Positions 583-16,160 of a stretch of DNA of 64,000 nt are shown here, piece after piece. The stretch comes from Marinicella sp. (lineage in GTDB: Bacteria; Pseudomonadota; Gammaproteobacteria; Xanthomonadales; Marinicellaceae): the NCBI GenBank assembly GCA_965230295.1, contig OZ246001.1, forward strand, positions 3,840,001-3,904,000. The letters run 5' to 3'. Positions within the stretch are counted from its first letter, which is position 1. The number at the start of each line of letters is the position of its first letter. Made by a program: the position numbers and the translations under genes. The notes under the pieces are model-generated. The model was not told the DNA's origin and made no database searches. It saw only the letters and a program-made list of their open reading frames with translations.

Positions 583-1833
583 TCAGTTTGAAAGTTTGTT
601 GTTTTCAATAATTTGGTCATATATATTTTCAATATCCAACTTATATTTATCGGTAAATTTGCCTGCATTTTTAGCTGAATTCACGCGATATAAAATAACT
701 GACAATGGGGCATAGTTACCAAGAGTTTTCATTGCCTCAATTGGTCTCATCGACTTATTTTCTACCTTTGCACTCCCAAATGAGTTTCTTAACCATTGAG
801 CAGTAGCCATTTGGCACTTTTCAATATCATCAATGAAATATTTTTTGTATGTGGTATTTTCATAAATAGATTGGTTCTGAATAATTATTTTGCTGATATC
901 CATTAAAGTTGATCCAACAATGGTCGAAATCTGCCTAGTTGTTATTTTCTTTAGTTTATAGGTATTTGAAACCAAAGGAATGATGACATCAGAATCAGTT
1001 TCGAAATATTCAGCCATGTAGCTTAGTTGTGAATTAATTACTTTCAACTGCTCAGAGTTCAAACTGATATAACGTTCATTTGAACCCATGATTTTAAGGA
1101 ATAATTCATTTTCTAAAGAAATTACATCTGAATTTTTCATATTGGAAAGTTCTGTTATTTTGAGCCCGAACTCTAACAAAATGTAAATGATCAAAAAAGC
1201 GCGATTGGCTTCAAAACAATCATAAGAAAAGCGATCGTAATCTGTTTCTTGTGCTAATACTGTTAATATGAACCTAGTTAGCTGGGGGTTTAAAGTTTTG
1301 CTGTTATACCGACTTTCCAATTCGCTGAGAGAATCATCTTTCATGAGATAGGCTGGTACAGGGTTCCTATATAAATAACAATTTGATTTCAAAAATCTGT
1401 AAAGAGTGTGTATTTTCCTAAGTGAGGACCTTACTGAAACCTTGGATCGAATTGATTTACGAAAGGGACGCCATTCAGGATTAATGCTATCATCGATTAA
1501 GATTTTTTTCTGATGAGTCCCCACCCATCTCTTTAAAGGTTTTGGATTGTAAAGAAATTCAGAGTAGGCCATGCAATTATCTGTCGTGAAAGCAGTAAAA
1601 GAAATGTTATTCTGCTCTAACCACAATAAAAATGTTTCAATTTCTTTGTAATAGGCACTTATGGTGTTTTTCACAGATTCCTTCATTGAAAGAAACTTCA
1701 TAATTGCATCAATATCAGTATTCACAGACAAATCGTTTTCTAAGTCTTTGCACAGGTTTTGGCCTGGAGCAAATACATCTGGCACTCTGTGCAGAATAAC
1801 TTTTGAGGATTTATATAACAGTATCGGCTCCAT
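583..1833 (-). CDS. Tyrosine recombinase family protein, catalytically degenerate
   Basis: N-terminal core-binding region (NTISAYYKEIETFLLW...PEWRPF...YLYRNP). Box I reads GLKITEL (canonical GLRxxE), box II reads AQWLRNS (HxLRH), and LGNYAPLSVILY corresponds to LGH...Y. Starts 11 bp after the tniQ stop. Confidence 0.8.
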   Translation of the reverse strand: MEPILLYKSSKVILHRVPDVFAPGQNLCKDLENDLSVNTDIDAIMKFLSMKESVKNTISAYYKEIETFLLWLEQNNISFTAFTTDNCMAYSEFLYNPKPLKRWVGTHQKKILIDDSINPEWRPFRKSIRSKVSVRSSLRKIHTLYRFLKSNCYLYRNPVPAYLMKDDSLSELESRYNSKTLNPQLTRFILTVLAQETDYDRFSYDCFEANRAFLIIYILLEFGLKITELSNMKNSDVISLENELFLKIMGSNERYISLNSEQLKVINSQLSYMAEYFETDSDVIIPLVSNTYKLKKITTRQISTIVGSTLMDISKIIIQNQSIYENTTYKKYFIDDIEKCQMATAQWLRNSFGSAKVENKSMRPIEAMKTLGNYAPLSVILYRVNSAKNAGKFTDKYKLDIENIYDQIIENNKLSN

Positions 1834-1844
1834 AATTTACACTC

Positions 1845-3203
1845 TTAGAAATATGAGTTGATTGCTTCGCCACCGAGATTAAAAATACTCAATAATTTTC
1901 TGGATTGTTTATTATCAAATTCAAAAATATCTTCAGGATAATAAACTGATAGTTTTAATTCATCTAATATGAATGTATATGGGCACCTGCATTCAAAGTT
2001 ATTTTGCAAGCCACCAACTATTTTACCATCGTCACTCTTTTTTGTTTGTTCCAAGAAAGATGACACGTACTTGAAAATACTGAGATAAGTGGTCCATAAA
2101 TCTATCTTATAAACCAACATTGATAGCTCCATAGGCATGCGATAGAACTTTAATTCTGATTTATCACAAATTACTTCATGTCTAATGAAAAACTGATGGA
2201 CTTGAGGTAGCTTAAGGCCACGACTAGTCATGTTGTTATATAAATCAGTAAAAACTGAAGCAGACCTATCTTCTGGCACATAATGACCATCATGAAGTAG
2301 CTTAATTAACTCTAGTGTGTTTGTCTTAATGTGGGCACTTGTTAAATCAGCGGTGTTGTTTTTAAGTAAGCATCTAATTTTTGATAATGATTTTTGGGTT
2401 ACTCTAACTTTTTGCTTATCTAGAGCACTCCAATAGTCATTTTCATTCACAAATCTGGACATATTGTCATCAGTTGTAACAGTATATTTTTGCTTGTTAA
2501 TTCGATAAAAAGGAACTTTTAACTCTTGAGCAAGTTGTTTCTCTGATTCAAATAAATCACCTTCCTTTGCCATTACAGATAAATTGAAAATGTGGTTATT
2601 ATTAATAACAGGCTTTGGAGTGAAAAACTGTGTATCTAAATACAGTTCAAATTTTGGCAGATACTTTTTCGAACGTCTTATGATTGAGTTTAAGAAATGG
2701 ACTTGGTCAAATTTTTCGTCACATGGTATTTTATTTGATTTGACTATTTGATTATCTAATTTTGTACCACAGGAACTACAGCCTCTTGATATTAAGTCAT
2801 GAGACATAGGCCAGTGAATTCCACATACATGACAGTTTGTTATTAAATCAGCATCATGAATAGGGCACTTTAGTAACCAAGGTTCATCAAATAGTTTTGT
2901 ATGAAACCCAATCTCAGCGCATTCTGGGCAATGCTTTAGTGGTCTATATCCTTTTTGTAATAAAAGATTCAACCTTTGATCTGATGGAATGTTTGATCTT
3001 TCATACATACTAGCAAGCAATGCAGGCTTGTATGCAATCAGTTTAGAATTAATAAATAGCTCACTTCCTTTGATGCCGACGTTCTTGAATTCTTTAATGA
3101 CTTTGCAGATAGAATTTAACCTTTGATTTGCAATAAGAAACCTGCGATAAGCGGAGTAGGGGCTTTCTCCTGGTCTTTTCAGCATTTGGCCAGTATTAAT
3201 CAT
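1845..3203 (-). CDS. tniQ: TniQ/TnsD family protein
   Basis: Zinc-binding pattern CPEC...CPIH...CHVC...CSSC typical of TniQ. ATG at 3203 overlaps the tnsC stop (TGATG). Confidence 0.75.
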   Translation of the reverse strand: MINTGQMLKRPGESPYSAYRRFLIANQRLNSICKVIKEFKNVGIKGSELFINSKLIAYKPALLASMYERSNIPSDQRLNLLLQKGYRPLKHCPECAEIGFHTKLFDEPWLLKCPIHDADLITNCHVCGIHWPMSHDLISRGCSSCGTKLDNQIVKSNKIPCDEKFDQVHFLNSIIRRSKKYLPKFELYLDTQFFTPKPVINNNHIFNLSVMAKEGDLFESEKQLAQELKVPFYRINKQKYTVTTDDNMSRFVNENDYWSALDKQKVRVTQKSLSKIRCLLKNNTADLTSAHIKTNTLELIKLLHDGHYVPEDRSASVFTDLYNNMTSRGLKLPQVHQFFIRHEVICDKSELKFYRMPMELSMLVYKIDLWTTYLSIFKYVSSFLEQTKKSDDGKIVGGLQNNFECRCPYTFILDELKLSVYYPEDIFEFDNKQSRKLLSIFNLGGEAINSYF

Positions 3204-4165
3204 CAAACTAACTCAACTTCATCAGGAATCAAGCCAGAAGCATTTATACTGGCTTCTACCATCTGGCTCATTAGAATAGGGTCATTGACTCCGTTGTTGG
3301 GAATAAAATCAAACAACAATATACGAATCATGGATAGAAAGTATTGAATGGGCCATGACTCTATTCCAGCTTCTTTACGAAAGCATTCCTCATAAACTTG
3401 CCAGATGATTTCTGTAATATCAATTAATCTCCAGTCATCAGACACTTCCTGATTCCATAGGTATTCTTTGGTATACGAGTTTTTCTTTGTAAACAAATAT
3501 TTTTGATCAATCTCACTTAAACATGCCTTCAGTTCTATTTCCTTTCTGATTCCATAGAAATTATGAAATTTCAATAAAAACCGTCCCCTTATCAATTCAT
3601 ACTGTGGGTTTTCTTTCATCTTGTCTAATAACTGTACCGAAGCAGAATGATTCCCAACAAAGAAAATCGAAAGATGAATCCCAAAATTCATCAATCCATC
3701 ATAGAGTTCAGCAAATACTTCAAACTGTTTAGGCCTAAGTCTTTGCATTTCATCAATAAAAAGAATCAGATTATGAGGAGTTTTAGAATTAGTCGCAGAC
3801 TCACCAAGAAAATAAATCAAATCATTAGCCATAATGTCTGCGCGAGTATTCTCAGTTATTGATAGTTCAGCTGAATAGCACAGCTGCCTAAGTATTCCTG
3901 TAATGGTTCCTACATCTCTTGGTGCTATAGAAGTGAAATGGCAATTAATTTTTTGATTTCTTCTTGTGTATATTCGATCTTTGACATGCTGTATTGCCGA
4001 GGTTTTTCCAATTCGGTTAGAACCAAGAATGACCCCTCCAGAGAAGCCATTCAAATGCCATTTATGGATGACCTCAGACAGTTCATCAATCATCGGAGTT
4101 GTTATAAAAAACTCCTTTAGATTCATCATCTGATCATAAATATTTGAGGAGCCATCATTACTCAT
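3203..4165 (-). CDS. tnsC: TnsC/TniB-like AAA+ ATPase transposition regulator
   Basis: Walker A GSNRIGKTS, Walker B LFIDEMQRL, arginine-finger-like IRGRF. Probable start at 4165 (ATGA overlap with the tnsB stop). Confidence 0.85.
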   Translation of the reverse strand: MSNDGSSNIYDQMMNLKEFFITTPMIDELSEVIHKWHLNGFSGGVILGSNRIGKTSAIQHVKDRIYTRRNQKINCHFTSIAPRDVGTITGILRQLCYSAELSITENTRADIMANDLIYFLGESATNSKTPHNLILFIDEMQRLRPKQFEVFAELYDGLMNFGIHLSIFFVGNHSASVQLLDKMKENPQYELIRGRFLLKFHNFYGIRKEIELKACLSEIDQKYLFTKKNSYTKEYLWNQEVSDDWRLIDITEIIWQVYEECFRKEAGIESWPIQYFLSMIRILLFDFIPNNGVNDPILMSQMVEASINASGLIPDEVELV

Positions 4166-6066
4166 CTTTTTTCTCCTTTGAATAAACCTCTGTTCCATTC
4201 GAAAGGGTTGTGTGATTTCCCGGTTTGAGTAAGATCTACTTCGTGATTGCTGTTGTTATTAAAATCATTTATTTCATCATCAGTTTTAAGGTGGTCAAAG
4301 GTGTTTATGCTTGAATTAAACTCTTTGGCCAGCCTCACTATTTCTAATGCTTCGCTAGGAAGGTGCTTGTCTCTCATGTGAATATCAAACATATTTCTGA
4401 GGGGATCTTTCAGTTTCAGGTTTTCCTTTCTGGTATATTTTGAGATTCTTTTTTTGGTTCTAAGCGAGAATGGGTGAGACTGCCAAGAAAGTGGAGCCAT
4501 CAAAGCTCCAAGAGATGTTCCATCTTCCTTAAATGCTTCAACCACTCTCAAGTCCCTTCTGTCAAAACGGATGGTTATTTTCTGATTTTCTAATTCAGAC
4601 TCGTTCAATCCTTCTCCAACATACCGAAGCCCATTAAAACTGATTTCTGGTGCTCGATTGTCACTTTTATACCAACATATTTTTCTGGTGTCTTGAGATA
4701 CAAATGGGCCTATGTTGTCTTCCCTCATTGCATAATTAATCCTTAGTGGATGACGTTCGTTTTGATATTTCAGATAATCTAATGGTGAAAGACCTCCCAA
4801 GCGCTCACGAGGCCGAGTGTTCTCAGCTGACACGACTACACTGATAACTTCTTCTAGTGTGCGCAGGGAAAAAGTAGGAACCTTCTTTGTATTAGATTTT
4901 GTTTCTTTAAGAGGATCTAAAACATGGGAGCCAGTTGTTGATGGAAAACGATGAATAATTTCATTTAATAATTTAAATGCGTACTCAATTAATTGTCTAC
5001 TCTTAGGATTTGCTGGTAAACCATAATTGAGGGTTGCTCCCAATGTAATTAAAACATAATCTTTTATACTCTTAGCCCTATGGCATTTTGCATTATCAAG
5101 TCCTACAATGCCAATTGATCGAAATTGAAACTCCTCATCCAGAGCACTTGGTAAACATGCACCCAATTGATATTCTAGCCCTGGTGTTTTCAATTCCATT
5201 GGCTCCCATTTTTCGTTTAGAAAACTGAATAAATTCAATAAGTCATCTTGATTAGGTTCTTTGGTGTAGCACAAAAAGTAAGAAAGAATACAATCAGATG
5301 CAACATCTTTCATCATAAATAAAGAAAGTCGCGAGAGCTTTAATGTTTTAATTACTCCATTATCATCAATAGCTATATTTACTTTTATATCTGTTAACTG
5401 AGAATCCAGTTGTATTTTTTGAAATGGCAGGAGGTCAATAATTTGAGTCTGGTTAATTGACCGCTGTTTTTTCTTCTTTGGCATGCGGTATTTATTAACC
5501 AATTTATGAAAATACCTTCTACAACTTTCTAATGCCTTGTTAGACTGATCGAAAGGATATTGATCATCAGGCCAGTTTAAGTCTTCCAACTCTGCTAGAA
5601 ACGCTTTATGAAAACTTTTTGGGGTCATGTTTTCTGCATTAGGATCCCTTCGCACAAACGCTTTTACTTTGTTCTTGAGTCTTTCGGTCATTTCTATGTT
5701 TTCCTCAAGAATTTTAGTAAATGAACCTCGAGCTCCTGAACATTTATGCTTACTTAAAGATTTTTTTCTTTTTCCATTATTTATTTTTTGACCTGGAATC
5801 AATGCTTTAGTTAAAGGTTGATCGTCATCCTCATAACCTGCCAATGCTCTACTCATTAAACGGCTTATTGCTGAAACCGAGATATTTTCCTCATCAGCTA
5901 TATCTTTAAACCTAATACCTAACAGTACTTTTATTACAATCCGTTGATTTCTTAAAAATTTTGTTCTTTTAACCCCCTTAAATTTCTTATGGTTTACTTT
6001 CGGCCAATTTTTATAATCTCTAAGTAGTGGAGAATACTGAAGCCGGAGTAACCATGTTAACCACAT
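4162..6066 (-). CDS. tnsB: TnsB-like DDE transposase
   Basis: N-terminal HTH (IADEENISVSAISRLM), DDE triad IQLDSQ / GLDNAKCH / QLIEYAF, and Mu-transposase-like C-terminal region (IRFDRRDLRVV). Confidence 0.85.
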   Translation of the reverse strand: MWLTWLLRLQYSPLLRDYKNWPKVNHKKFKGVKRTKFLRNQRIVIKVLLGIRFKDIADEENISVSAISRLMSRALAGYEDDDQPLTKALIPGQKINNGKRKKSLSKHKCSGARGSFTKILEENIEMTERLKNKVKAFVRRDPNAENMTPKSFHKAFLAELEDLNWPDDQYPFDQSNKALESCRRYFHKLVNKYRMPKKKKQRSINQTQIIDLLPFQKIQLDSQLTDIKVNIAIDDNGVIKTLKLSRLSLFMMKDVASDCILSYFLCYTKEPNQDDLLNLFSFLNEKWEPMELKTPGLEYQLGACLPSALDEEFQFRSIGIVGLDNAKCHRAKSIKDYVLITLGATLNYGLPANPKSRQLIEYAFKLLNEIIHRFPSTTGSHVLDPLKETKSNTKKVPTFSLRTLEEVISVVVSAENTRPRERLGGLSPLDYLKYQNERHPLRINYAMREDNIGPFVSQDTRKICWYKSDNRAPEISFNGLRYVGEGLNESELENQKITIRFDRRDLRVVEAFKEDGTSLGALMAPLSWQSHPFSLRTKKRISKYTRKENLKLKDPLRNMFDIHMRDKHLPSEALEIVRLAKEFNSSINTFDHLKTDDEINDFNNNSNHEVDLTQTGKSHNPFEWNRGLFKGEKR

Positions 6067-6722
6067 AATTTCACCTCAGTATCATATGAAAACGGCCTCT
6101 CTTCTAAATTCATGATAACCATCCCTTTATGACATAATCTATAGAAAGCAATCTCATGAGCTTTTTTATTAAACCTATCATGCTGAGAAATGATGTCACC
6201 CAACTGCTGCTCTGGTGTAATGCTTAAGGAATCTAATATCTTATATTCTTGGTTCTGTGTTTCAATGTGACTGTTTATAACAAGAGCTCTGATAATTTCG
6301 AGCCAGTTAACAGCAAATATTTCTCTATCCAACACTTCTTCATTTGAGATAACCAAGAATTCAATATTTTCTCTTTTTAGGTAGGCTTTTAATGGGATTT
6401 GTATTCTCTGACTAAATTTACCCTTAGGTTTGAGTTCAACAATATATTTCTTGCCATTTTTTACATAGTAACAATCAGGGATATATGGCCTGTTTCCTAT
6501 TAAGAATTTGTGTGATTGAGGCACAAATCTTGTTACTTCAGGATCACTTTCTAAAATTGCCGCATGAAGAAATTCGCTCTTCGAATGAAATATTCCAACT
6601 TCTGGAAATTTAATGAATATTTGATAAAAACAATTACTGCCTTCTTCTATTTTTTTCGCGTCAGCCATATGCTGGAAAGGGGTTAATGTATCTGTTTTTA
6701 CTTTTAAATTACTAGTTTTCAT
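6057..6722 (-). CDS. tnsA: TnsA-like PD-(D/E)xK endonuclease
   Basis: HSKSE...LESDPEV...PQ...YIPD...IVELKP pattern of the TnsA N-terminal domain; overlaps the tnsB start. Confidence 0.8.
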   Translation of the reverse strand: MKTSNLKVKTDTLTPFQHMADAKKIEEGSNCFYQIFIKFPEVGIFHSKSEFLHAAILESDPEVTRFVPQSHKFLIGNRPYIPDCYYVKNGKKYIVELKPKGKFSQRIQIPLKAYLKRENIEFLVISNEEVLDREIFAVNWLEIIRALVINSHIETQNQEYKILDSLSITPEQQLGDIISQHDRFNKKAHEIAFYRLCHKGMVIMNLEERPFSYDTEVKLCG

Positions 6723-6780
6723 CTCTCAATAATTAGGAATAAAACATTTTTAATTTATCAAACAACAATATTTATTGGAA

Positions 6781-6806
6781 GTAACAACAATATTTTCTGT
6801 TGTTAC
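6781..6806. promoter_or_regulatory. Perfect 9-bp inverted repeat (GTAACAACA-N8-TGTTGTTAC) between divergent tnsA and HTH genes; putative operator
   Basis: Seen directly. AACAACAATATTT also occurs as direct repeats at 6761 and 6783. Confidence 0.5.
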
Positions 6807-6890
6807 AACATTTTATTGAAAAATTTTATAGCCAATGCTATATTGATAGTTGTAATTTTTTAAACGTATTAGTCGGAGCATGAAATCTTC

Positions 6891-7361
6891 ATGGTCGAAA
6901 AACAAAATAATGTAAAAGGTTACAAACCTGGCCAGGTTTGTGAGCTTATAGGTGAGAGCTATGAAACCCTAAGATATTGGAGAGAATACCTATACCCCAA
7001 ACCTCCCCAAATTCATTTCAGTTTGAATGATATTTTCATTTACCATTTCATAAAATCTTTTATTAAAGGAAAGAGAGTAGATGTCAACGAACTTGAAAAA
7101 GTAGAATGGAGAAAAATTTTACAAAGATGTAGTAGCTTGAGTGCTGAAGAGAAAAAGTCTTGCATTGCTGTATTTGACTTTCAGAGCAGAAAATTTTCTT
7201 TTATAACATCTATCAATCAAATAGATTTAAGCGATGACAGGTACACTTTTGTTTACATGAAAACAATTTTTAATCGATTTAATTTATCATTGCGAAAATT
7301 TGGAAATGCTAGGTCAAATATTGTTCCTATAGAAACCGGCCTTTTTATTGAAGCCTCTTAA
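6891..7361 (+). CDS. MerR/Xis-like helix-turn-helix DNA-binding protein
   Basis: N-terminal YKPGQVCELIGESYETLRYWRE matches the MerR-type winged-HTH pattern; divergent from tnsA. Confidence 0.6.
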   Translation: MVEKQNNVKGYKPGQVCELIGESYETLRYWREYLYPKPPQIHFSLNDIFIYHFIKSFIKGKRVDVNELEKVEWRKILQRCSSLSAEEKKSCIAVFDFQSRKFSFITSINQIDLSDDRYTFVYMKTIFNRFNLSLRKFGNARSNIVPIETGLFIEAS

Positions 7362-7574
7362 TATTGGTTGGGTTCGGCTAATATTATTTCTTAGTGATTT
7401 AATCCTGCTGAACTGCCCAATTAAATTTCTACCACATTCCATATTATTTTTTTATTTAAATAATGTGCATCTATGTTTAGTGCTATCTGGTTATCTATGT
7501 ACAATATATTGAGAAAATTTTTTTTAAAGGGAAAAGAGTGCTAGACAAGCTACTCATAAAAATGAGTATTTATT

Positions 7575-7826
7575 TTGAATAAAAAATATCGTTTAACATT
7601 GATGGTCATATCACTAATTACGATAATAACAATAGGACGTTTATCCACAGGATCATTTGACTTTTGGAGCACTCAATTCTGGTTTGTTTCTGGGGCTTTA
7701 TTACTTATATTACTAGCATTAATTGATCAACCACATTTTTCAAAAGACGCGAACATATTTGTTAACGGTTCGACTGCTCTTATTTCATTATTCGTCGTCC
7801 AATCCAATGATAGAGATAATTTTTGG
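7575..7826 (+). pseudogene. 5' remnant of a membrane protein gene truncated at a deletion junction
   Basis: Hydrophobic helices up to ...DRDNFW, after which the frame is the out-of-frame read of the FG-GAP gene. Base composition changes at about 7826. Confidence 0.55.
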
Positions 7827-9262
7827 CCGGGGATTTTAATGGTGATGGCATCGACGACCTCATCATTGGCGCTTGCAGAGCTACCCCTGATGCTGTTAAT
7901 AATGCTGGGCGCAGCTATGTTGTTTTTGGCACACAATCTGGTTTATTTAACCCTTTGGCATTAAGCGATTTGGATGGTTCAAATGGGTTTGTCATAGATG
8001 GTCATATTCCTAATGGTTCATCAGGCAGATCGGTGGCATCCGCTGGAGATGTGAATAACGATGGCATTGATGACATTCTGATTGGTGCACCAGAAGCAAC
8101 AAATCAAGTTACACAAGCAGGCATTGTTTATTTGATTTATGGCTCAGATGAAGGTTTCTCTGCACAGCTGAACTTGAACGACCTGAATGGTATCAATGGG
8201 GCGGTCATAAACGGAAACTACATTCAAAGCCGTTTTGGCCATTCAGTGAATGCCGCCGGTGATGTCAATAACGACGGCATTGATGACATCATAATCGGTG
8301 CACCTGATGTTGATAGCAATGACGTTGTTAGATCTGGTGCTGCGTATATCATTTTTGGTCATGAGCAGGGGTTGATTCATCCTTTGGGTGTATCTGACCT
8401 GAATGGAATCAATGGTTTTGAAATTCGCGGAATAACACAAGAAAATTCAAGAATTGGATATTCAGTGGCTGAGGCTGGCGATGTCAATGCAGATGGCATC
8501 TCAGACATCATCATCGGTAGTGCCTATTTAGTAGGCCATATCGGCGATTTTAATGCCGGTCAGAGTTATGTTGTCTTTGGCAGTGATCAGCGGTTCCCAA
8601 ATCCGTTACAGTTATCTGAGTTAAGTGGAAGTAATGGGATCCAGATTTTAGGTGAACATGCAGATGATCAATCGGGATTTGCGGTGAGTGCTGCGGGAGA
8701 TATCAACCATGATGGCATTGATGATTTTGCCATCGGTGCTGTCGGTACGGATCATAATGGGTTAGAAAATTCAGGATCTGTGTATGTGATTTATGGGGGT
8801 CATTCAGAGCTTCCTCACCCTTTTAACCTGAGTTCAATCAATGGCGTTAATGGCTTTCGATTGGATGGAACTGATGCGAGAGCCAATTTTGGGAATGCAA
8901 TCAGTAAAGCACAAGACATTAACCTGGATGGCATGGATGACATCATTATTGGGGCTTTTACTGCACCTGTTCCCTCAGTGACTGATGCGGGCAAAGCATA
9001 TGTCATCTATGGCAGTGATCAACCCATAGGCCACCCCTTCAATCTTTCTGCTTTAAATGGGCTTAATGGATTTGCTGTTTTAGGGTCGGATAATGACAAT
9101 CTGGGGAGCAGCGTGAGCGGAATGGGAGATTTCAATAACGACGGAATTAGCGATCTGATTATTGGTGCTTTTAATGCGGCTGTTGAAGATCAAAGCCGTG
9201 CAGGAAAAAGTTATCTGATATTCGGTACCGAGCAGGCCCTTTTTGCCAATGGTTTTGACTGA
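7823..9262 (+). pseudogene. FG-GAP (integrin-alpha-like beta-propeller) repeat protein, 5'-truncated
   Basis: Seven AGD(V/I/F)NxDGxDD repeats. Begins abruptly at the first repeat with no signal peptide or RBS, unlike the paralog at 9736. Ends ALFANGFD. Confidence 0.7.
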
Positions 9263-9286
9263 CCCTATTAATCTATTTGCGAGCAT

Positions 9287-9363
9287 TGTGCCCGTATTGA
9301 AAGGATTACTGTGTTTCTCTCCCTCCTCTTCACAGTTAATTGACTCGATACGGGCACATTTTT
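9287..9363 (+). terminator. Long stem-loop with pyrimidine-rich loop and T-tract after the first FG-GAP gene
   Basis: TGTGCCCGTATTGA pairs with TCGATACGGGCACA (one G-U), inner stem ACTGTG/CACAGT, followed by TTTTT. Confidence 0.55.
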
Positions 9364-9686
9364 ATGATGTCTAATCACAGTGCCAAGACACATGTTATAA
9401 ACGATTAAAATATTAAATACCGATGAGCCACAACGAGATAAACGGTTGCTTCCATGCTCCAACATCATCAAAGTCGAAAACTTGCAAATAAAGACTGAGT
9501 TAATTGAGCTGCCCTGACATTACAATTAACTGGTTTGAATCATCCAAGCTCCAAAACAAGCAGTCAAAAGGCGTCCCCCAGTGAGGTCTTTTTGTATTTG
9601 CATTCAATCAGGTAACAAGTATGTAACAAAATTAATACCCATTGCATCAAGCTTGATAACCGTTTTCCTTGCTTCTGCCTAAACTC

Positions 9687-9717
9687 AAGCCCATCCATCA
9701 AAGTGATGGGCTTTTTT
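9687..9717 (+). terminator. Intrinsic terminator-like hairpin directly before the RBS of the second FG-GAP gene
   Basis: AAGCCCATC...GATGGGCTT followed by a T-run; AGGAGG at 9724-9729 and ATG at 9736. Confidence 0.5.
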
Positions 9718-9735
9718 ACAAACAGGAGGAGACAA

Positions 9736-11343
9736 ATGAAACCTCAAAAACAACTTTACTGGGCGTTGCTTACGTCTGTATTTTTTAACAACACATCACA
9801 CGCTGGCTTTGATGCCGAATTGAGCTTGAGCGAAATTGAGGGCCTGAACGGCATCGTTGTTCAAGGAGAAAACCCCCATGATATTGCTGGGTTTTCGGTC
9901 AGTCATGCGGGTGACCTCAATGGCGATGAAATTGATGATTTCGTTATTGGTGCTTATGGCGTAGATGAAGGGATTGCCCAGAATGCGGGTCGCAGCTATG
10001 TGGTGTTTGGTTCTGCCTCAGGTTTACCCAGCCCATTGAATCTCTCTACTTTGGATGGCAATAATGGTTTTACCATTCACAGTTCAGCCACCAATGGGGG
10101 CTTTGGTCATTCAGTCAGTCATGCTGGTGATGTGAATCACGATGGATTGGATGATTTAATCATAGGCGCACCTTACTCCAATGTGACCACAATATTCCAA
10201 ACTGGGGCGGCGTACGTGATTTTTGGCCAAGACGAAGGCTTTGACAATGTCATAAATGTTGAAGATTTGAATGGCGATAACGGCTTTGCTATTTTTGGTA
10301 ATCAACAACAGAGTACTTTAGGTTTTTCAGTTTCATCGGCAGGTGACATCAATGATGATGGCATTGATGATGTCATTATCAGTGCACCAAAGACCGATAA
10401 CAATGGTGTCAATGATTCAGGTGCCGCATATGTGATTTTTGGAGATGACTCTGGATTTCCTCACTCTCTTTCCATCTCTGCTTTAAACGGTCTGAACGGA
10501 TTTGAAATTCGTGGTTTTCCATTTCAGTTTAATGGCCCTGAATTAAAAGTAAGTTCGGCAGGAGATGTCAATCACGATAACATCAATGACGTTGTTATTG
10601 GAGGCCCCAGAGTTGGGATAGATGGGCAGGAAGAAGCTGGTGTCGCTGTGGTGGTCTATGGACAATCAACACGCTTTCCTAATCCTGTGCAGATGTCAGA
10701 GATAGATGGTGATAATGGCGTGCATATTTATGGCATTGCTGCATTTGATCAAACCGGTTACAGCGTCAGTGAAGCCGGTGATGTCAATGCCGATGGCATA
10801 GATGACCTGATCATTGGGGCCAGAAGAACTGATTTTAATGTCACCAATACTGGATCGGCATACGTGGTTTATGGTCAATCATCAGGGCTTGCGCATCCTC
10901 TGGATTTAAACGACATCAATGGACTCAACGGCTTTCGCATAGATGGAAACTTATTAGGTGCTGAATTAGGCACTTCTGTCCATTCAGCCGGTGATATCAA
11001 TCATGATGGTATAAACGATCTGGTTGTGGGCGCACCAGACGATTTAGTACCAGATACAAATGCAGCAGGTAAAAGTTATGTGATATATGGCTCTGATCAG
11101 GGCATTGGACATCCCATTAATGTGGCGGCTTTGGATGGCAACAATGGCTTTGCCATCGCAGGTTCGGATGACAATGGGAAATCAGGGCAGGCTGTCAGCC
11201 AGGCTGGTGATGTGAACAACGATGGCATCAGCGACTTCATCATAAGTGCCCATTTAGCTGGTGCCAATGGCATAAATGCAGCAGGAAAAACTTATGTGGT
11301 TTATGGCCGTGAAAAGCCTTTGTTTAAAGGTGGTTTTGAATGA
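9736..11343 (+). CDS. Secreted FG-GAP repeat (integrin-alpha-like) protein
   Basis: Strong SD before ATG 9736, signal peptide ending SHA, seven FG-GAP repeats, C-terminus PLFKGGFE. Confidence 0.85.
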   Translation: MKPQKQLYWALLTSVFFNNTSHAGFDAELSLSEIEGLNGIVVQGENPHDIAGFSVSHAGDLNGDEIDDFVIGAYGVDEGIAQNAGRSYVVFGSASGLPSPLNLSTLDGNNGFTIHSSATNGGFGHSVSHAGDVNHDGLDDLIIGAPYSNVTTIFQTGAAYVIFGQDEGFDNVINVEDLNGDNGFAIFGNQQQSTLGFSVSSAGDINDDGIDDVIISAPKTDNNGVNDSGAAYVIFGDDSGFPHSLSISALNGLNGFEIRGFPFQFNGPELKVSSAGDVNHDNINDVVIGGPRVGIDGQEEAGVAVVVYGQSTRFPNPVQMSEIDGDNGVHIYGIAAFDQTGYSVSEAGDVNADGIDDLIIGARRTDFNVTNTGSAYVVYGQSSGLAHPLDLNDINGLNGFRIDGNLLGAELGTSVHSAGDINHDGINDLVVGAPDDLVPDTNAAGKSYVIYGSDQGIGHPINVAALDGNNGFAIAGSDDNGKSGQAVSQAGDVNNDGISDFIISAHLAGANGINAAGKTYVVYGREKPLFKGGFE

Positions 11344-11362
11344 TGGTCAAACTTTGAGTCCA

Positions 11363-11432
11363 GTGTTTGTTTTGAACGACTTGCTTTTTCCCACCTCATT
11401 TAGCAAGTTCAGTAGGAATAGGCACATTTTTT
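11363..11432 (+). terminator. Stem-loop similar to the one at 9287, after the second FG-GAP gene
   Basis: Inner stem ACTTGCT/AGCAAGT, outer G-U-rich stem GTGTTTGTTT/GAATAGGCAC, ending GGCACATTTTTT. Confidence 0.45.
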
Positions 11433-11472
11433 AAATCTTTTCTTTTAAAATCAATGCAGATTCAGGGATAAC

Positions 11473-11829
11473 ATGATGAATTCAAAAAATATTAACTATG
11501 CGTTCAGCTTGATGTTGCTGCTGTTGGCTTTCAAGTCACTGGCTGAATCAACCACCATCGAAATTCCTGCCGAATTTCACCCAAACAATGAAGCGCTCAT
11601 CTCTGTGGTCAATGTGAATGTGCCCTTAAACGCTACGACAGCCCAGCCTGTCCCTGCTTGTATTATTGTTCATGGCTCTGGCGGGTTGTTTTCTGAAGGT
11701 GAAGTTGGCGAAGCATGTGATACTTCTCCCCATAATATGAGTGGCAATTTCGCTGATTTAATGGCTGTTTTCGAAGAATTAGGCGTGGCAACGATTGCCC
11801 CATCCAAAGAAAAAAATAGGCTGAATTAA
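11473..11829 (+). pseudogene. Truncated secreted alpha/beta-hydrolase (dienelactone-hydrolase-like N-terminus)
   Basis: Signal peptide and PACIIVHGSGG motif, then the ORF ends in AT-rich DNA before any GxSxG nucleophile motif. Confidence 0.55.
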
Positions 11830-11996
11830 TTTTAGATATCTCTTATGGATAGAAATGCATTTTGATTTACTCTCAATTATTAAATCAGGATTAAATCAGG
11901 ATTTAATAATTTAAATTCTTCATTTGAATGGAATAATACAGCCATAAATAAGTATTTTGGGTTTGAGTAAAAAAGAAATAAGCTGTATAGTTAAAC

Positions 11997-12539
11997 TTGA
12001 GATCAAGTCTTAACGACAACAATAAACTGAATAATCAAATGAACATGTTAAAAATAATTGTGACAATTACAACTCTTGTTTTATCATCAATAAGTAAGGG
12101 AGATTCCAAAGAAAGTTGTGAAGATTTATATTCAAAAAGTCTTGAAACAGACTTATACCTAACTTACGAATTATTTGATCAAACTCCAGCAAATGGATTT
12201 CGAAAACTTGCGGGTCAATGTCCAGGCGAAGCTGTTAAATTAATAAAAAACTATATTATCATTAACGAAGCAAAAGAAAGCTCCTTGAGATGGCATATTG
12301 CTCAACTGGAAGGAATGATGGGCAATTATCAGGAGGCTATTATCTTTGCAAATACTGTTCTTACTGAACAAAATACTGGACAGTTTAAATGGAATGATTT
12401 TGTTGAGGGTAAAATTGCATATTGGAAACAAGATTTCGAAACCTTAAAAGATAAGATTAAGATTCTTGAAAGTAATTTGGATCATCGGGGGAACAAGATG
12501 AATGTTGAAATTCTGAAAGGGCATCTTGCTGAAGAGTAA
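11997..12539 (+). CDS. Hypothetical secreted helical (TPR-like) protein
   Basis: Hydrophobic signal-like N-terminus from an internal Met; helical segment LRWHIAQLEGMMGNYQEAI. Confidence 0.55.
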   Translation: MRSSLNDNNKLNNQMNMLKIIVTITTLVLSSISKGDSKESCEDLYSKSLETDLYLTYELFDQTPANGFRKLAGQCPGEAVKLIKNYIIINEAKESSLRWHIAQLEGMMGNYQEAIIFANTVLTEQNTGQFKWNDFVEGKIAYWKQDFETLKDKIKILESNLDHRGNKMNVEILKGHLAEE

Positions 12540-12614
12540 ATCAATCTAAATATATAGATTTCGTAATGAAAGTAATCTTTGCATCAATAAAATTCAATAT
12601 AACTGATTGAGTCT

Positions 12615-15146
12615 ATGCACAAAGCTTTCAATGCTCTTTTAGTGCTTTTGTCTCTGTACTTATTATCTGGTGAAACAAAGTCACAGATTCTTGCTGAGTA
12701 TTTAAATAACTTTTCGAAAAACATAATACTTCAGTGTGATTCTGAAAAAAACAAGAATATAGTTCAGGAAAATTCTAACGTTGTTGGTGAATATGTCTTT
12801 CAAGAGTTTAGTTCACCATCACCATATCTTGGCAAAGAAAGCATGGATGTCTCTCATGAACTTGTTTGGACTGAGACAATTCACTCATCTGATGCCTCAT
12901 ACATTTCACCTTACTTTAGTCAATACGATATTAAGCCAGAAGACTTCTTTGTTTTAAGATCACCAGATCACACAAGATCTTGGACATATGATTTTGAAGA
13001 GTTAGCTAGTTTTAATGGCAAGGGTTTTTGGGGCATACCAATTCATGGTGATACTGCAATCGTTGAATTATATGCAGGTACAAAACAAGGTTCTGGCGGT
13101 ATAACTATTGGTAAGTTTGCAAAAGGCTTTCCTAAAGATATAGAAAAAACCCAATTCAGATCAATTTGTGGCACAGATGACAGTGAAGAAGCCGTATGTT
13201 ATCAATCAACAGAGCCAACTGTCTATGAAAAATCTCTTGCCGTTGTAAGGCTCAATATTGGTGGTGTCATAGCATGTACAGGTTGGCTCGTAGGCAATGA
13301 AGGACATGTCATTACAAATGAACATTGTATAAGCGTTCAAGCAGCTGCAGAAGTTACTTCAATTGAGTTTTTAGCTGAGGGAGCTGAGTGTTCAGATGAC
13401 TGTACATATCCATTTGGCTGTCCAGGAATCATTGAAGCAGCTTCATCACAAGTAGTAAAAATGAATGCTGATTTAGATTATGTTTTGCTCAAACCCAATA
13501 ACCCAATTAACGACCTTCCCTCGACCTATGGCTATTTACAAATGAGGGAAACCGGTGCAGAAATAAATGAACAAATATATATTCCACAACACCCTCGAGC
13601 TTGGGGCAAAAGGATTGCTTATTTTTCAACTGATACAGCTTCAGGCTTAGGAGAAGTTCACAGTTTGAACATGCCACCATGCTCCTTGGTAGGAAGCGAT
13701 GTTGGATATCTATTAGATACACAAGGTGGTTCTTCAGGGTCTCCGGTGATTTCATACGACGACCATAAAGTAGTCGCTCTTCATCATTGTGGAATATGCC
13801 CAAATCGAGGGGTTCCTATAGAAAGTATCATTGATGACTTGGGAGACGATTTACCCAATTCTGCTCTATGCGACTCACCAGAACCACCATTAAATCTAGC
13901 GGCTCAACAAAAGAATGACAATGAAATTCAGCTGACTTGGAGTCATGGTGTTGGTGCAGATTCTTACGACATATACAGATCAGTTGGTATGTGTACACAT
14001 CAATCTTTGGATTATCAACTTATTGCTTCAAAAGTGGTTGGAACCTCATTTATTGATACAACTGTCTCAGGAAATACCACATATTCTTATAAATTGAAAT
14101 CACACAATCAAACTGTTCAATGTGATTCTTTATTCACTGAATGCTCATATGCAACAGCAACAGGGTTATGTACCATGGCCCCAACTTTTGATGGTTTGGA
14201 AACGATATCCTCATCACAATCACCAATTTGTAAAACCTCTTTACAGTGGTCACAAGCGGATCAAAATTGTGGAACTAACATCAGTTACAACATTTACAGG
14301 GATACTGTTGATGATTTCCAACCATCAGTGCAAAATTTAATTTCTGCTTGTGTGGATGGTTTATCATTTAATGACTTTGACCTTCAAAGTGATGCTACAT
14401 ATTATTATTCAGTACAAGCAGAAGACAACAGTGGTAATGGATCAGGGTTGTGTGGTTTTGGTAATGAAAACACGAGCCTCACCCAATCAGGTATTAGACC
14501 AATGGGCCCTAATTCGGTTGTATTTTTTGATGAAGTTCCATCAAGCCAACCCAACGATGCATGGATCGCTGTTAATGGTTCAGGGGATGATGGATCTACC
14601 CATAATTGGTCAATCACTGATTCCCGCTCATTTTCTCCACCTTATTCTTGGTTCATTCAAGAATATTCAGGTAACAAAGAAAAGTTGTTAATTTACAATA
14701 ATTCGCTAAGTGTAAACAATGAGTTTTATATGCTTGAGTTTAACCAGTTTATGGGGCTTGAAAGACTTAAAAGTGGAGCTGTTTTAGAATACTCAACAGA
14801 CAATGGGGCTACTTGGTATGACATACTTAGAGGGAATGGAGTAACTGTGCCCGACAATTCAAGTCGTATTGAACAAACAGGTTATAATGAAAATCCTTTA
14901 ATTGGTGATGGTGTATTAGCTGGTAGATTAGCATGGACTGGTAACACTTACGACGGCTGGCAAAATGTAAAAGTCTCCTTAGCTGATTTTGATGGAACTG
15001 ACATCAAACTCAGATGGCGATATGGTTCTGATTCGAGTGGCAATAACTATGGGTGGTATGTAGATGATGTCAAAATTTACTCTACATCTTCATGTATAAA
15101 CATAGCAGATGACTTAATTTTCATTAACGGATTTGGAGAAGTTTAA
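12615..15146 (+). CDS. Secreted trypsin-like serine protease with FN3-like and C-terminal beta-sandwich domains
   Basis: Signal peptide; catalytic triad motifs TNEHC, LDYVL and DTQGGSSGSPV; FN3-like repeats; GWYVDDV; C-terminus DDLIFINGFGEV. Confidence 0.85.
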   Translation: MHKAFNALLVLLSLYLLSGETKSQILAEYLNNFSKNIILQCDSEKNKNIVQENSNVVGEYVFQEFSSPSPYLGKESMDVSHELVWTETIHSSDASYISPYFSQYDIKPEDFFVLRSPDHTRSWTYDFEELASFNGKGFWGIPIHGDTAIVELYAGTKQGSGGITIGKFAKGFPKDIEKTQFRSICGTDDSEEAVCYQSTEPTVYEKSLAVVRLNIGGVIACTGWLVGNEGHVITNEHCISVQAAAEVTSIEFLAEGAECSDDCTYPFGCPGIIEAASSQVVKMNADLDYVLLKPNNPINDLPSTYGYLQMRETGAEINEQIYIPQHPRAWGKRIAYFSTDTASGLGEVHSLNMPPCSLVGSDVGYLLDTQGGSSGSPVISYDDHKVVALHHCGICPNRGVPIESIIDDLGDDLPNSALCDSPEPPLNLAAQQKNDNEIQLTWSHGVGADSYDIYRSVGMCTHQSLDYQLIASKVVGTSFIDTTVSGNTTYSYKLKSHNQTVQCDSLFTECSYATATGLCTMAPTFDGLETISSSQSPICKTSLQWSQADQNCGTNISYNIYRDTVDDFQPSVQNLISACVDGLSFNDFDLQSDATYYYSVQAEDNSGNGSGLCGFGNENTSLTQSGIRPMGPNSVVFFDEVPSSQPNDAWIAVNGSGDDGSTHNWSITDSRSFSPPYSWFIQEYSGNKEKLLIYNNSLSVNNEFYMLEFNQFMGLERLKSGAVLEYSTDNGATWYDILRGNGVTVPDNSSRIEQTGYNENPLIGDGVLAGRLAWTGNTYDGWQNVKVSLADFDGTDIKLRWRYGSDSSGNNYGWYVDDVKIYSTSSCINIADDLIFINGFGEV

Positions 15147-15316
15147 TAAAAGTTGGCGGTTTACGTAGCTATGTGGTCACTGGGCCCTTATGGAGGTTTG
15201 ATACCCAAATTAGCCCGAATTTAGTCAATCACCCAAGAGTTGACTCAGAAAAACAAATTATCTCAATAGCTTACGTGGGTTTCATGTCCATTTTTGGTTA
15301 AATCTGGCACATCACC

Positions 15317-15913
15317 CTAAATTTGAATTCGAGGTTCCCAACGATGTGATTTATAGTGTCTGTAGCTTTCAAGAAGAGTAAAGTTGTTATTTTCTTTACT
15401 TAATAAGTTTAATGCTTTTAGATATTCATTTTGATTTGAGAAATTGAAGCCAAAGTTTTGAGGTGATTATAATCTTTTGACGACTTCTAAATATGTTAAT
15501 ACTTCTTGTTTATTATTTGGATTGAATGAATGAAAATTTGACCATACAAGTAAGCTGATTTTTTCTCTCATTAAATAAAGATTCAAAATACAAGCATCAG
15601 CATAAAAACTTACTGGTCCATATGTTTGTGAATGTGCTTGACCATCAGTAGTAACTTCTTTATATGCCAACGAGTGTGACTTCATTTTTGTGAAGCCATA
15701 AACAAGTTGATCTGCCAAATGTTTAATGTCATTTGCCCAATGGAATGTATTGAACTTCCAATGACTGTTTTGATTTTTATAAAATTTAGTTCTTAAAATA
15801 TTAAATTCAATATCTAGCTGATTAATTTCTACATGCTTACACACATCATCAGTAAGAGAGTGATAAATGTTATCCGCATTGTCAAACACGTCTTTATTCG
15901 TTAAGTTTGTCAT
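15317..15913 (-). pseudogene. HEPN-domain (Cthe_2314-like) RNase pseudogene
   Basis: Reading past the stops at 15467-15469 and 15395-15397 gives ...EVVKRL*SPQNFGFNFSNQNEYLKALNLLK*RNNNFTLLESYRHYKSHRWEPRIQI*, which contains an R-x4-H motif. Confidence 0.6.
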
Positions 15914-16029
15914 GAAACTACCAAGTTCATAGAAACTATAGATTTTACAATTAAATTATGCTCATGTATTAAAGTTAAAAAAAATCAAATTTGCGTACAT
16001 TTCATAATTTAATTTAACTGGTGTTTTAG

Positions 16030-16102
16030 TTTAGTGGGTTAGTTGTAACTTTAGTGGGTTAGTTGTGAAAAGTTTAGTGGTTTAGTTGTGCCTCCAAAAA
16101 CA
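16030..16102 (-). repeat. Probable transposon end: three 17-bp direct repeats (TnsB-site-like) plus terminal TGT/ACA
   Basis: TTTAGTGGGTTAGTTGT at 16030 and 16050, TTTAGTGGTTTAGTTGT at 16073. The minus strand reads TGTTTTTGGAGGCACAACTAAACCACTAAACT from 16102. Confidence 0.7.
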
Positions 16103-16132
16103 TGGAATAGGTTTGTTAAATGATTAATTAAA

Positions 16133-16160
16133 TATACGCATAATATATATTATGTTAAAT
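16133..16160 (+). other. dif: dif site (XerC/XerD chromosome dimer resolution site)
   Basis: TATACGCATAA-TATATA-TTATGTTAAAT versus E. coli dif GGTGCGCATAA-TGTATA-TTATGTTAAAT. The XerD arm is identical and the architecture is 11-6-11. Confidence 0.92.

Follow-up and report, generated by a model that had tools for sequence, protein, structure and literature searches.

A candidate dif-homing clade of Tn7-like transposons, with a degenerate tyrosine recombinase in one lineage

The 64,000-nucleotide stretch analysed here (the window) covers positions 3,840,001-3,904,000 of a Marinicella sp. genome that consists of a single 4.0-Mb contig, and it holds the right-hand part of a transposon, E1, whose right end stops 36 bp short of the chromosomal dif site. 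E1 carries tnsA-, tnsB-, tnsC- and tniQ-like genes followed by a gene for a catalytically degenerate tyrosine recombinase, rec, and related ends stand at the same offset from dif in several marine gammaproteobacteria. That the clade to which E1 belongs targets dif is highly probable, and the use of dif as a landing site by a Tn7-like family appears not to have been described before. The account that best explains the data, and that we consider likely as a whole, places E1 in a dif-homing Tn7-like clade directed by TniQ, with rec as an add-on of the E1 lineage. An earlier note, made from the sequence of the window, had proposed transposition at a fixed offset beside an intact dif; the 36-bp gap, the 5-bp duplication and the same offset in other species bear this out. 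Below, G numbers denote genomes (G000 is the source genome), L numbers individual loci and P numbers rec homologs.

E1 and the tandem array at dif

The junction between E1 and the chromosome is made up of the following features (window coordinates).

16030-16089, + strand: right-end array of three TnsB-site-like repeats (16030-16046, 16050-16066 and 16073-16089)
16089-16096, + strand: right terminus, 8 bp, ...TGCCTCCA-3'
16097-16101, + strand: right copy of the 5-bp target-site duplication (TSD), AAAAC
16097-16132, no strand: spacer of 36 bp between terminus and dif, unconserved between species
16133-16160, + strand: chromosomal dif, with a XerC-type arm (16133-16143), a central hexamer (16144-16149) and a XerD-type arm (16150-16160)

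The 28-mer at 16133-16160 is the real chromosomal dif. It is the sole match in the 4.0-Mb genome at up to six substitutions (genome position 3,856,133), and near-identical sites are present in 13 relatives. Cumulative GC skew is lowest near 1.70 Mb and peaks in the 2-kb bin that begins at 3,856,000 and contains the site. The host encodes a XerD that scores above the curated cut-off, and a second Xer protein elsewhere in the genome. The names of the two arms are presumed by analogy with E. coli dif.

The ends of E1 are built from a 17-mer, TTTAGTGG(G/T)TTAGTTGT, that occurs three times in the window (at 16030, 16050 and 16073) against 0.08 expected, and none of 100 shuffles reaches three copies. 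Three inverted copies at genome 3,782,391-3,782,532 form the left end, 73.7 kb upstream and outside the window. The copies are spaced by 65 and 60 bp at the left end and by 20 and 23 bp at the right end, and such clustering of TnsB sites on the right with dispersal on the left is the end asymmetry of Tn7-type elements. The sequence AAAAC flanks both ends with five of five positions identical (genome 3,782,379-3,782,383 and window 16097-16101); E1 is therefore a 73.7-kb transposon (genome 3,782,384-3,856,096) that has its right-hand 16 kb, which include window positions 583-16096, in the window and runs 57.6 kb past the window's left edge. The duplication also pairs the 16030-16102 end with the left end, as parts of one element, and the left boundary is an inverted TnsB-site end, with no second dif-like site. 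The search for left ends counted only the six clustered matches at zero or one mismatch, since at two mismatches the pattern gave seven real and 13 reversed-control matches.

The earlier note had correctly recognised a TnsB-site-like end here, and had preferred an ACA at 16102, with a gap of 30 bp to dif, over a CCA at 16096. The true right terminus is the CCA at 16096, because the AAAAC duplication matches and the ends of relatives align at that point, and the gap is 36 bp. Aligned termini from this genome and its relatives read 5'-TGGA-N4-CAACTAAA...TTTAGTTG-N4-TCCA-3', and a terminal motif, TTT(A/G)GTTGNNNNTCCA, is common to all related ends. In one sequencing run, possibly from the source sample, a contig bridges 15400-16375 with 0 differences; in a marine metagenome run, 15409-15967 is matched at ~99% identity and is followed by unlike sequence. 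Neither of the two runs contains excision joints, and both are uninformative on excision; no RNA run is listed as containing this region.

E1 is not alone beside dif. At one mismatch the terminal motif has 88 matches genome-wide, and only the five exact matches were used; all five lie inside 3,697,695-3,856,096 and mark out three abutting elements (genome coordinates).

3,697,695-3,734,462: element A, without tns genes and without a TSD
3,734,469-3,782,379: element E2, with a paralogous tnsABC-tniQ set ~40% identical to that of E1 and no rec
3,782,384-3,856,096: element E1, the third and dif-proximal member

Together they form a head-to-tail array of ~158 kb, low in G+C, on the XerC-arm side of dif, with all right ends toward dif. 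Once the site that preceded E1 is reconstructed, E2 is flanked by AAACA on both sides, and the three insertions, at 35-36 bp from dif, show a stagger of 1 bp. As part of the same likely account, E1 would be the newest member of the array.

A relative of E1 is present at a metagenomic locus, L054, with Tns proteins 86-89% identical. Its left end lies ~270 bp past rec, at the point where G000 has ~58 kb of extra cargo, including FG-GAP, CotH, LRR and DUF285 proteins.

The same offset in other genomes

Comparisons with other genomes provide evidence for targeting at a fixed distance. First, the dif loci of 13 relatives include an end of this type 34-36 bp from the XerC arm in six (G001, G002, G003, G008, G011 and G022) and 35 bp from the XerD arm in G023; G024 is anomalous, and five have no such end. 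Second, the genomes of 185,579 species were scanned for the terminal motif at 39-43 nt from the palindromic dif core, a range set beforehand that allowed offsets of 33-37 bp to the 28-bp dif. This wide scan returned 13 loci, with offsets of 35 bp (6), 36 bp (6) and 37 bp (1), six on the XerC side and seven on the XerD side. The constant distance that the earlier note had expected of related elements, as opposed to unrelated loci, is thus seen in 13 of 13. The loci belong to Marinicella (4), Arenicella/Arenicellaceae (3), Methylophagaceae, Cocleimonas, Candidatus Poriferihabitaceae, Pseudomonadales and two unclassified metagenome-assembled genomes; eight come from genomes new to the analysis, and five are contigs already among the G genomes. 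Third, a scan of 401 genomes of the order with the gap widened to 21-51 nt gave six matches, all at 41-42 nt, and none for the reversed-pattern control.

The 16-nt terminus is common to left and right ends, and the pattern alone does not tell which of them faces dif. The tnsA-side end does so in all five gene-linked cases (E1, E2, G023, G049 and L041), and by eye about ten of the 13 wide-scan loci show clustered right-end repeats, while three retain the terminal site only. Spacers and outer flanks are unrelated between most species, leaving dif as the only common denominator.

Several of these elements can be delimited at both ends, and perfect 5-bp TSDs are present for E1, E2 and the elements of G023 and G049. 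The tns-bearing element on contig 12 of G023 is flanked by CAAAC/CAAAC. The genome that holds L053, G049, contains a complete element of ~41 kb flanked by AAAAA/AAAAA and ordered left end, tniQ-tnsC-tnsB-tnsA, cargo, right end, 36 bp, XerD arm of dif. In G003 two tns-less elements of ~5 kb each stand in tandem, with a junction of ACGAG versus ACAAG (4/5). Arrays are one-sided in each genome, with three elements in G000, at least two in G003 and two in G023.

Two further loci have unusual junctions. On G023 contig 12 (L038 2286-2322, and L036), two near-identical right ends lie in tandem, each followed by CAAAC; if target immunity worked here as in Tn7, a second end of the same type would be unexpected. 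On a Methylophagaceae chromosome (L042), the 36-nt spacer holds a second, inverted dif-like site 2 nt from the right terminus.

Known elements that exploit dif as a single-copy safe harbour, the integrative mobile elements exploiting Xer (IMEX) such as CTXphi, TLC and the gonococcal island, integrate by XerCD recombination and are flanked by dif or dif-like sites. IMEX-like integration, or generic build-up of islands at the terminus without site-specific targeting, would accord with the island-rich, variable character of terminus regions and with the Xer-like integrase genes carried as cargo in elements A and E2. Against this, the genome has one dif-like site at up to six mismatches and no second, the junctions are transposon termini made of inverted TnsB-site arrays with 5-bp TSDs, and the offset is constant to the base pair across genera. 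Both versions are thus extremely improbable.

The tns operon and the reading of dif

Five tightly packed open reading frames on the - strand occupy window 583-6722 in the order tnsA-tnsB-tnsC-tniQ-rec, with overlaps of 10, 37 and 4 nt and then an 11-nt gap between tniQ and rec; their arrangement is as the earlier note described it.

6057-6722, - strand: tnsA-like endonuclease, 221 aa (Pfam Tn7_TnsA-like_N and invariant residues)
4162-6066, - strand: tnsB-like DDE transposase, 634 aa (Pfam Mu-transpos_C)
3203-4198, - strand: tnsC-like AAA+ ATPase, 331 aa (Pfam AAA_22)
1845-3206, - strand: tniQ/tnsD-like gene, 453 aa, with an N-terminal Cys/His zinc-ribbon core; proposed target selector
583-1833, - strand: rec, Xer-like tyrosine recombinase of 416 aa with a degenerate catalytic set; final gene of the operon

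Family assignment relies on profile matches and invariant residues. Tn7_TnsA-like_N (PF08722) is found in six of six TnsA homologs (best 1.8e-7; the window copy, at 5.3e-3, is under the cut-off), in which E50, D83 and K98 are invariant. TnsB matches Mu-transpos_C at 22.1 bits against a cut-off of 21.7 and has no rve match, and Mu-transpos_C is found in five of six homologs; its invariant D221, D324 and E361 would form the DDE triad. TnsC matches AAA_22 at 4.2e-9 and, across six homologs, keeps G64 and K65 of Walker A and D149 and E150 of Walker B. In TniQ, C93, C96, H102, C114, H117, C125, C128, C143 and C146 are invariant among six homologs, and the profile of these six matches a PDB chain named 'TniQ.1' at an E value of 1.6e-4; Pfam TniQ matches one of the six, at 0.015. 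The nearest Atlas clusters to the window TniQ are TniQ-bearing (score 0.98, a lead only), and an AlphaFold2 (AF2) model of TniQ from an eight-row alignment has a mean pLDDT of 49, too low for a fold search. Searches of PDB sequences with TnsA, TnsB and TnsC, by phmmer and by profile, matched no Tn7 or CRISPR-associated transposon (CAST) protein. The family evidence is modest because the Tns proteins are divergent. Within the same overall account, the elements likely form a divergent Tn7-like clade with TnsA, TnsB, TnsC and a TniQ/TnsD-like protein of 450-530 aa.

The rec product is related to Xer recombinases. Its best NCBIfam match is XerD at 1.4e-9 (37.7 bits against a cut-off of 329.6), followed by XerC, XerA and XerS, all far under their cut-offs. 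Its AF2 model has a pLDDT of 91.6 and can be superposed on recombinases over both of their domains, with XerA, XerH-difH, lambda Int and Cre as best Foldseek matches. Of the catalytic set R-K-H-R-H-Y, rec retains only Arg II and the tyrosine (Tyr382); Lys replaces Arg I, Gln replaces His I, Asn replaces His II and the beta-hairpin Lys is missing, which gives K-(lost)-Q-R-N-Y. The change of four of six catalytic positions and its conservation in the closest homologs bear out the earlier note's description of this recombinase as dead. In an alignment of 26 sequences, the four closest (P0001-P0004, down to 33% identity) share the degeneracy (Arg I to Lys, hairpin Lys lost, His I to Gln or Lys, His II to Asn or Ile), and the other 22 retain the canonical set. 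Hence rec is a domesticated, probably non-catalytic member of an otherwise active family of ~400-aa proteins.

The distribution of rec is narrow. Among 1.84 billion representatives searched, 780 relatives were found at E<=1e-3 and three at E<=1e-30; a protein homolog search returned three proteins for rec and four for TniQ, the window's own counted in, and a metagenome scan with rec returned a single locus, L054. Seven tns operons were examined for rec. It is the last gene, after tniQ, in E1 and L054, and is absent from E2, G023 contig 12, G023 contig 34, G049 and G043. G033 and G043 have rec-like genes of the active type, unlinked to tns. That of G033 (contig 25, L061) encodes a 430-aa family member with the full catalytic set ~5 kb from dif, beside which, at ~12 nt, stands a partial dif-like half-site; L061 may be a Xer-type integrative element. 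In the E1 cargo, by an FG-GAP gene 3 kb outside the window's left edge, a pseudogene at genome 3,837,036-3,837,418 (about 11037-11419 of L062) contains two stop codons and is 31-36% identical to the last ~85 residues of rec; an earlier element that carried rec may have left it behind.

These data bear on which protein reads dif, and how, which we infer from gene content and comparison. The earlier note had named rec, TniQ or both as selector. E2 and the elements of G023 contig 12 and G049 lack rec and yet stand at the same offset, so rec is not a general dif selector. TniQ, at 450-530 aa, is the better candidate, since no other selector-type gene is shared by the four complete elements next to dif. 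In PMC10293859, proteins of the size class into which the 453-aa TniQ falls are linked to direct target selection. We therefore favour TniQ as the element-encoded selector, with some confidence. The clade's attachment site would be dif itself, with the right, tnsA-side end placed 35-36 bp outside the 28-bp core on either arm. TniQ would recognise the proximal half of dif, either the DNA or a Xer protein on it, and, like TnsD at attTn7, bring in TnsC followed by TnsAB at a fixed distance. Insertion would create the 5-bp duplication and leave dif intact, so that successive elements could pile up in tandem. An add-on of the E1 lineage that dif homing in the clade would not require, rec most likely still binds DNA and may modulate or extend targeting.

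A larger role for rec in E1-type elements is conceivable: it would be the primary reader, sitting at a dif half-site alongside host XerC/XerD or instead of them, and TniQ would only be the adaptor to TnsC. Such a rec would be a convergent analogue of TnsF, the recombinase-derived protein of Tn6022. The position of rec 11 nt past tniQ at the end of the operon, kept in L054, would suit such a role, as would its best family matches among Xer recombinases, a confidently predicted complete two-domain fold resembling DNA-bound XerH, and the precedent of TnsF (PMC10293859). Conservation of the degenerate catalytic set down to 33% identity also implies selection for a non-catalytic role. Nevertheless, E2 and the elements of G023 and G049 stand at the same offset without rec, and the TniQ of E1 equals those of elements without rec in length and can be aligned with them from end to end, so we regard this reading as rather unlikely. 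A predicted complex of TniQ and rec scored 0.00 and is uninformative either way.

It is somewhat less doubtful, though still well short of probable, that TniQ senses the host XerC/XerD-dif nucleoprotein complex and not the DNA, like the 'res-site hunters' of the Tn5053 type. The equal distance outside either arm would fit, as would TniQ C-terminal regions that are nearly unalignable between elements at the same site. For the ISAba32 group of insertion sequences (IS), the authors argue that more than the nucleotide sequence is recognised at Xer sites (bioRxiv 10.1101/2022.12.17.520857). On the other hand, the one-sided arrays of G000, G003 and G023 fit arm-specific recognition, though XerC and XerD differ as proteins. 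A bolder combination, which we consider less likely than not, is that the clade senses the XerC/XerD-dif complex, inserting 35-36 bp outside either arm, and that in one lineage a captured Xer recombinase lost catalysis and became a dif-binding targeting subunit. Tn7-like elements would then have domesticated a tyrosine recombinase twice independently, the first case being TnsF.

Returning to dif homing directed by TniQ, a number of observations weigh against it. Over its C-terminal two thirds, TniQ shows just 14-19% identity from one element to another, and this includes the pair E1 and E2, which have arm and host in common. Such divergence is odd for readers of one DNA site and leaves room for recognition via host XerCD; it is compatible with either. 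The family assignment stands on weak hidden Markov model scores, with TnsA, TniQ and rec under curated cut-offs and TnsB and TnsC without a PDB sequence match. TnsB homologs are scarce, being present in five of 41 relatives (G000 included) and in two of nine further genomes with an end at dif; those nine include a chromosome-level record that has such an end and no TnsB homolog. Most dif-adjacent ends are therefore orphan or non-autonomous. The left terminal 8 bp of E1, TAAAGATA, start with TA and not TG (the L054 equivalent is TGAAGGTA), a change that may have immobilised E1, and element A lacks a TSD. In G024, the 35 nt adjoining dif on the XerC side start with an inverted terminus (TGGATGCCCAACTAAAC...) that faces away. 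A related element of G023, on contig 34 and with a TniQ of 252 aa, lies away from dif. Finally, the empty site was not recovered: the 5.7 kb to the left of the array and the 3.8 kb to the right of dif, compared by tblastx with 21 dif loci from relatives, gave no match at 1e-8.

Some details of these loci can be added. In G024 (L013/L035) another end-like remnant precedes the inverted terminus, an end-like sequence ...GGGTGTCCA lies 45 nt from dif on the XerD side, and there are no tns genes within 20 kb of dif. The contig 34 element of G023 (L039, 35,940-52,358) measures ~16.4 kb and has the terminus ...GTCCCA. Opposite arms are used by E2 and the G023 element, which have cores 58-61% identical and TniQs 25% identical. 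TniQ divergence was considered as the cause of arm choice, an idea weakened by C-termini that are equally divergent (14-19%) between same-arm elements.

Related systems and cargo

Tn7 and Tn7-like elements, which use TnsD/TniQ att sites at glmS, tRNA, parE, nrdB and comM, among others, share with the present elements the tnsA-tnsB-tnsC set with a gene that is at least tniQ-like, the 5-bp TSD, asymmetric ends (three sites close together at the right, three spread out at the left), and a right end that faces an intact att site at a fixed distance of tens of bp, with tandem pile-up. Unlike their att sites, which are conserved gene ends, dif is a non-coding, protein-bound recombination site that is used from either arm. 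The termini here are TGGA...TCCA, whereas those of Tn7 are TGT...ACA, cargo lies on both sides of the tns operon, and the proteins are too divergent for sequence matches to the solved Tn7 and CAST structures. Tn5053/Tn402 elements are of the TniABQ type and likewise target a recombination site occupied by its recombinase; however, they have no TnsA, and their targets are plasmid res sites bound by serine resolvases, not dif.

Like rec, TnsF of Tn6022 is recombinase-derived, non-catalytic and encoded directly after tniQ (PMC10293859, PMC11014353). According to the former, TnsF has several zinc fingers at its N-terminus, core-binding (CB) domains in tandem, and a catalytic domain that is only partial and without the Tyr pocket. 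Set against that description, rec has no Cys clusters (its cysteines are at 28, 87, 152, 206 and 340), one CB domain and a full catalytic-domain fold with the tyrosine kept; it is associated with dif, not comM, and is dispensable in sister elements. The protein is thus not of the type of TnsF, which the earlier note had cited, the zinc-finger N-terminus being absent and the catalytic-domain fold complete. As far as TnsF is known by description, rec is independent of it in origin and comes from the ~400-aa family in which the other 22 of 26 aligned members have the full catalytic set. From XerC and XerD proper, rec differs by scoring under the equivalog cut-off and lacking a complete catalytic set.

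The earlier note had also held that the known dif-exploiting elements integrate by Xer recombination. This is too narrow: Xer sites, among them chromosomal dif, receive IS of the ISAba32 group (IS1202 family) at 5-6 bp from the XerC arm (bioRxiv 10.1101/2022.12.17.520857). Transposition by a DDE enzyme beside dif therefore has a precedent. As described there, the ISAba32 subgroup shows the same oriented insertion beside XerCD sites, leaves the site intact and can stack in tandem. It differs in being single-transposase IS of ~1.5 kb at 5-6 bp from the XerC arm only, whereas the elements here use TnsABC and TniQ, stand at 35-36 bp from either arm and span tens of kb with cargo.

The full-text literature (CC-licensed PMC papers and bioRxiv) yielded no report of a Tn7-like element with dif as its target, though the supplementary locus tables of PMC10293859 and PMC8649781 could hold unnoticed examples. 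The whole word 'dif' is absent from the text of PMC10293859, and the available part of PMC8649781 contains no 'Xer' and only words that start with 'dif'. PMC11014353 names comM, glmS, parE and nrdB as att sites; the dif-like site that it describes inside Tn6022 serves a XerC-like recombinase of the cargo and is distinct from homing to dif.

As dif occurs once per chromosome in nearly all bacteria, a dif-homing family has an almost universal safe harbour, and such homing would explain very large accessory regions built exactly at the terminus (158 kb here). It would add to Tn7 biology a new class of att site, recombinase-bound, quasi-palindromic, non-coding and usable from both sides. It also raises the questions of how TniQ reads dif, whether insertions 35 bp away disturb FtsK/XerCD dimer resolution, and what role the dead Xer protein plays. 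The TnsABC-TniQ set could serve for single-copy insertion at a conserved site in diverse hosts.

The cargo of E1 between tnsA and the right end is as follows (window coordinates).

6723-16029, no strand: cargo region (Pfam matches below, plus small ORFs of unknown type)
7823-9262 and 9703-11343: two FG-GAP repeat proteins (Pfam)
12615-15146: trypsin-like/MAM protein (Pfam)

Secreted or surface-type repeat proteins (FG-GAP, LRR, CotH with LTD, DUF285 and trypsin-like/MAM) are abundant in the cargo of E1 and of the tns-less G003 element. The right-end-proximal cargo of E2 (L063, genome 3,770,000-3,782,500) contains a resistance-nodulation-division (RND) efflux pump of the AcrB family, an HTH-IrrE/M78 regulator, two apparently ordinary integrases of 413 aa and 316 aa, the second Xer-like, and a pair of GmrSD and RiboL-PSP HEPN proteins that resembles a defence module. 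Within E1 and outside the window, at genome 3,804,000-3,818,000, GC skew is very strongly positive (0.19-0.33 per 2 kb), and this stretch probably represents one or more very large genes on one strand.

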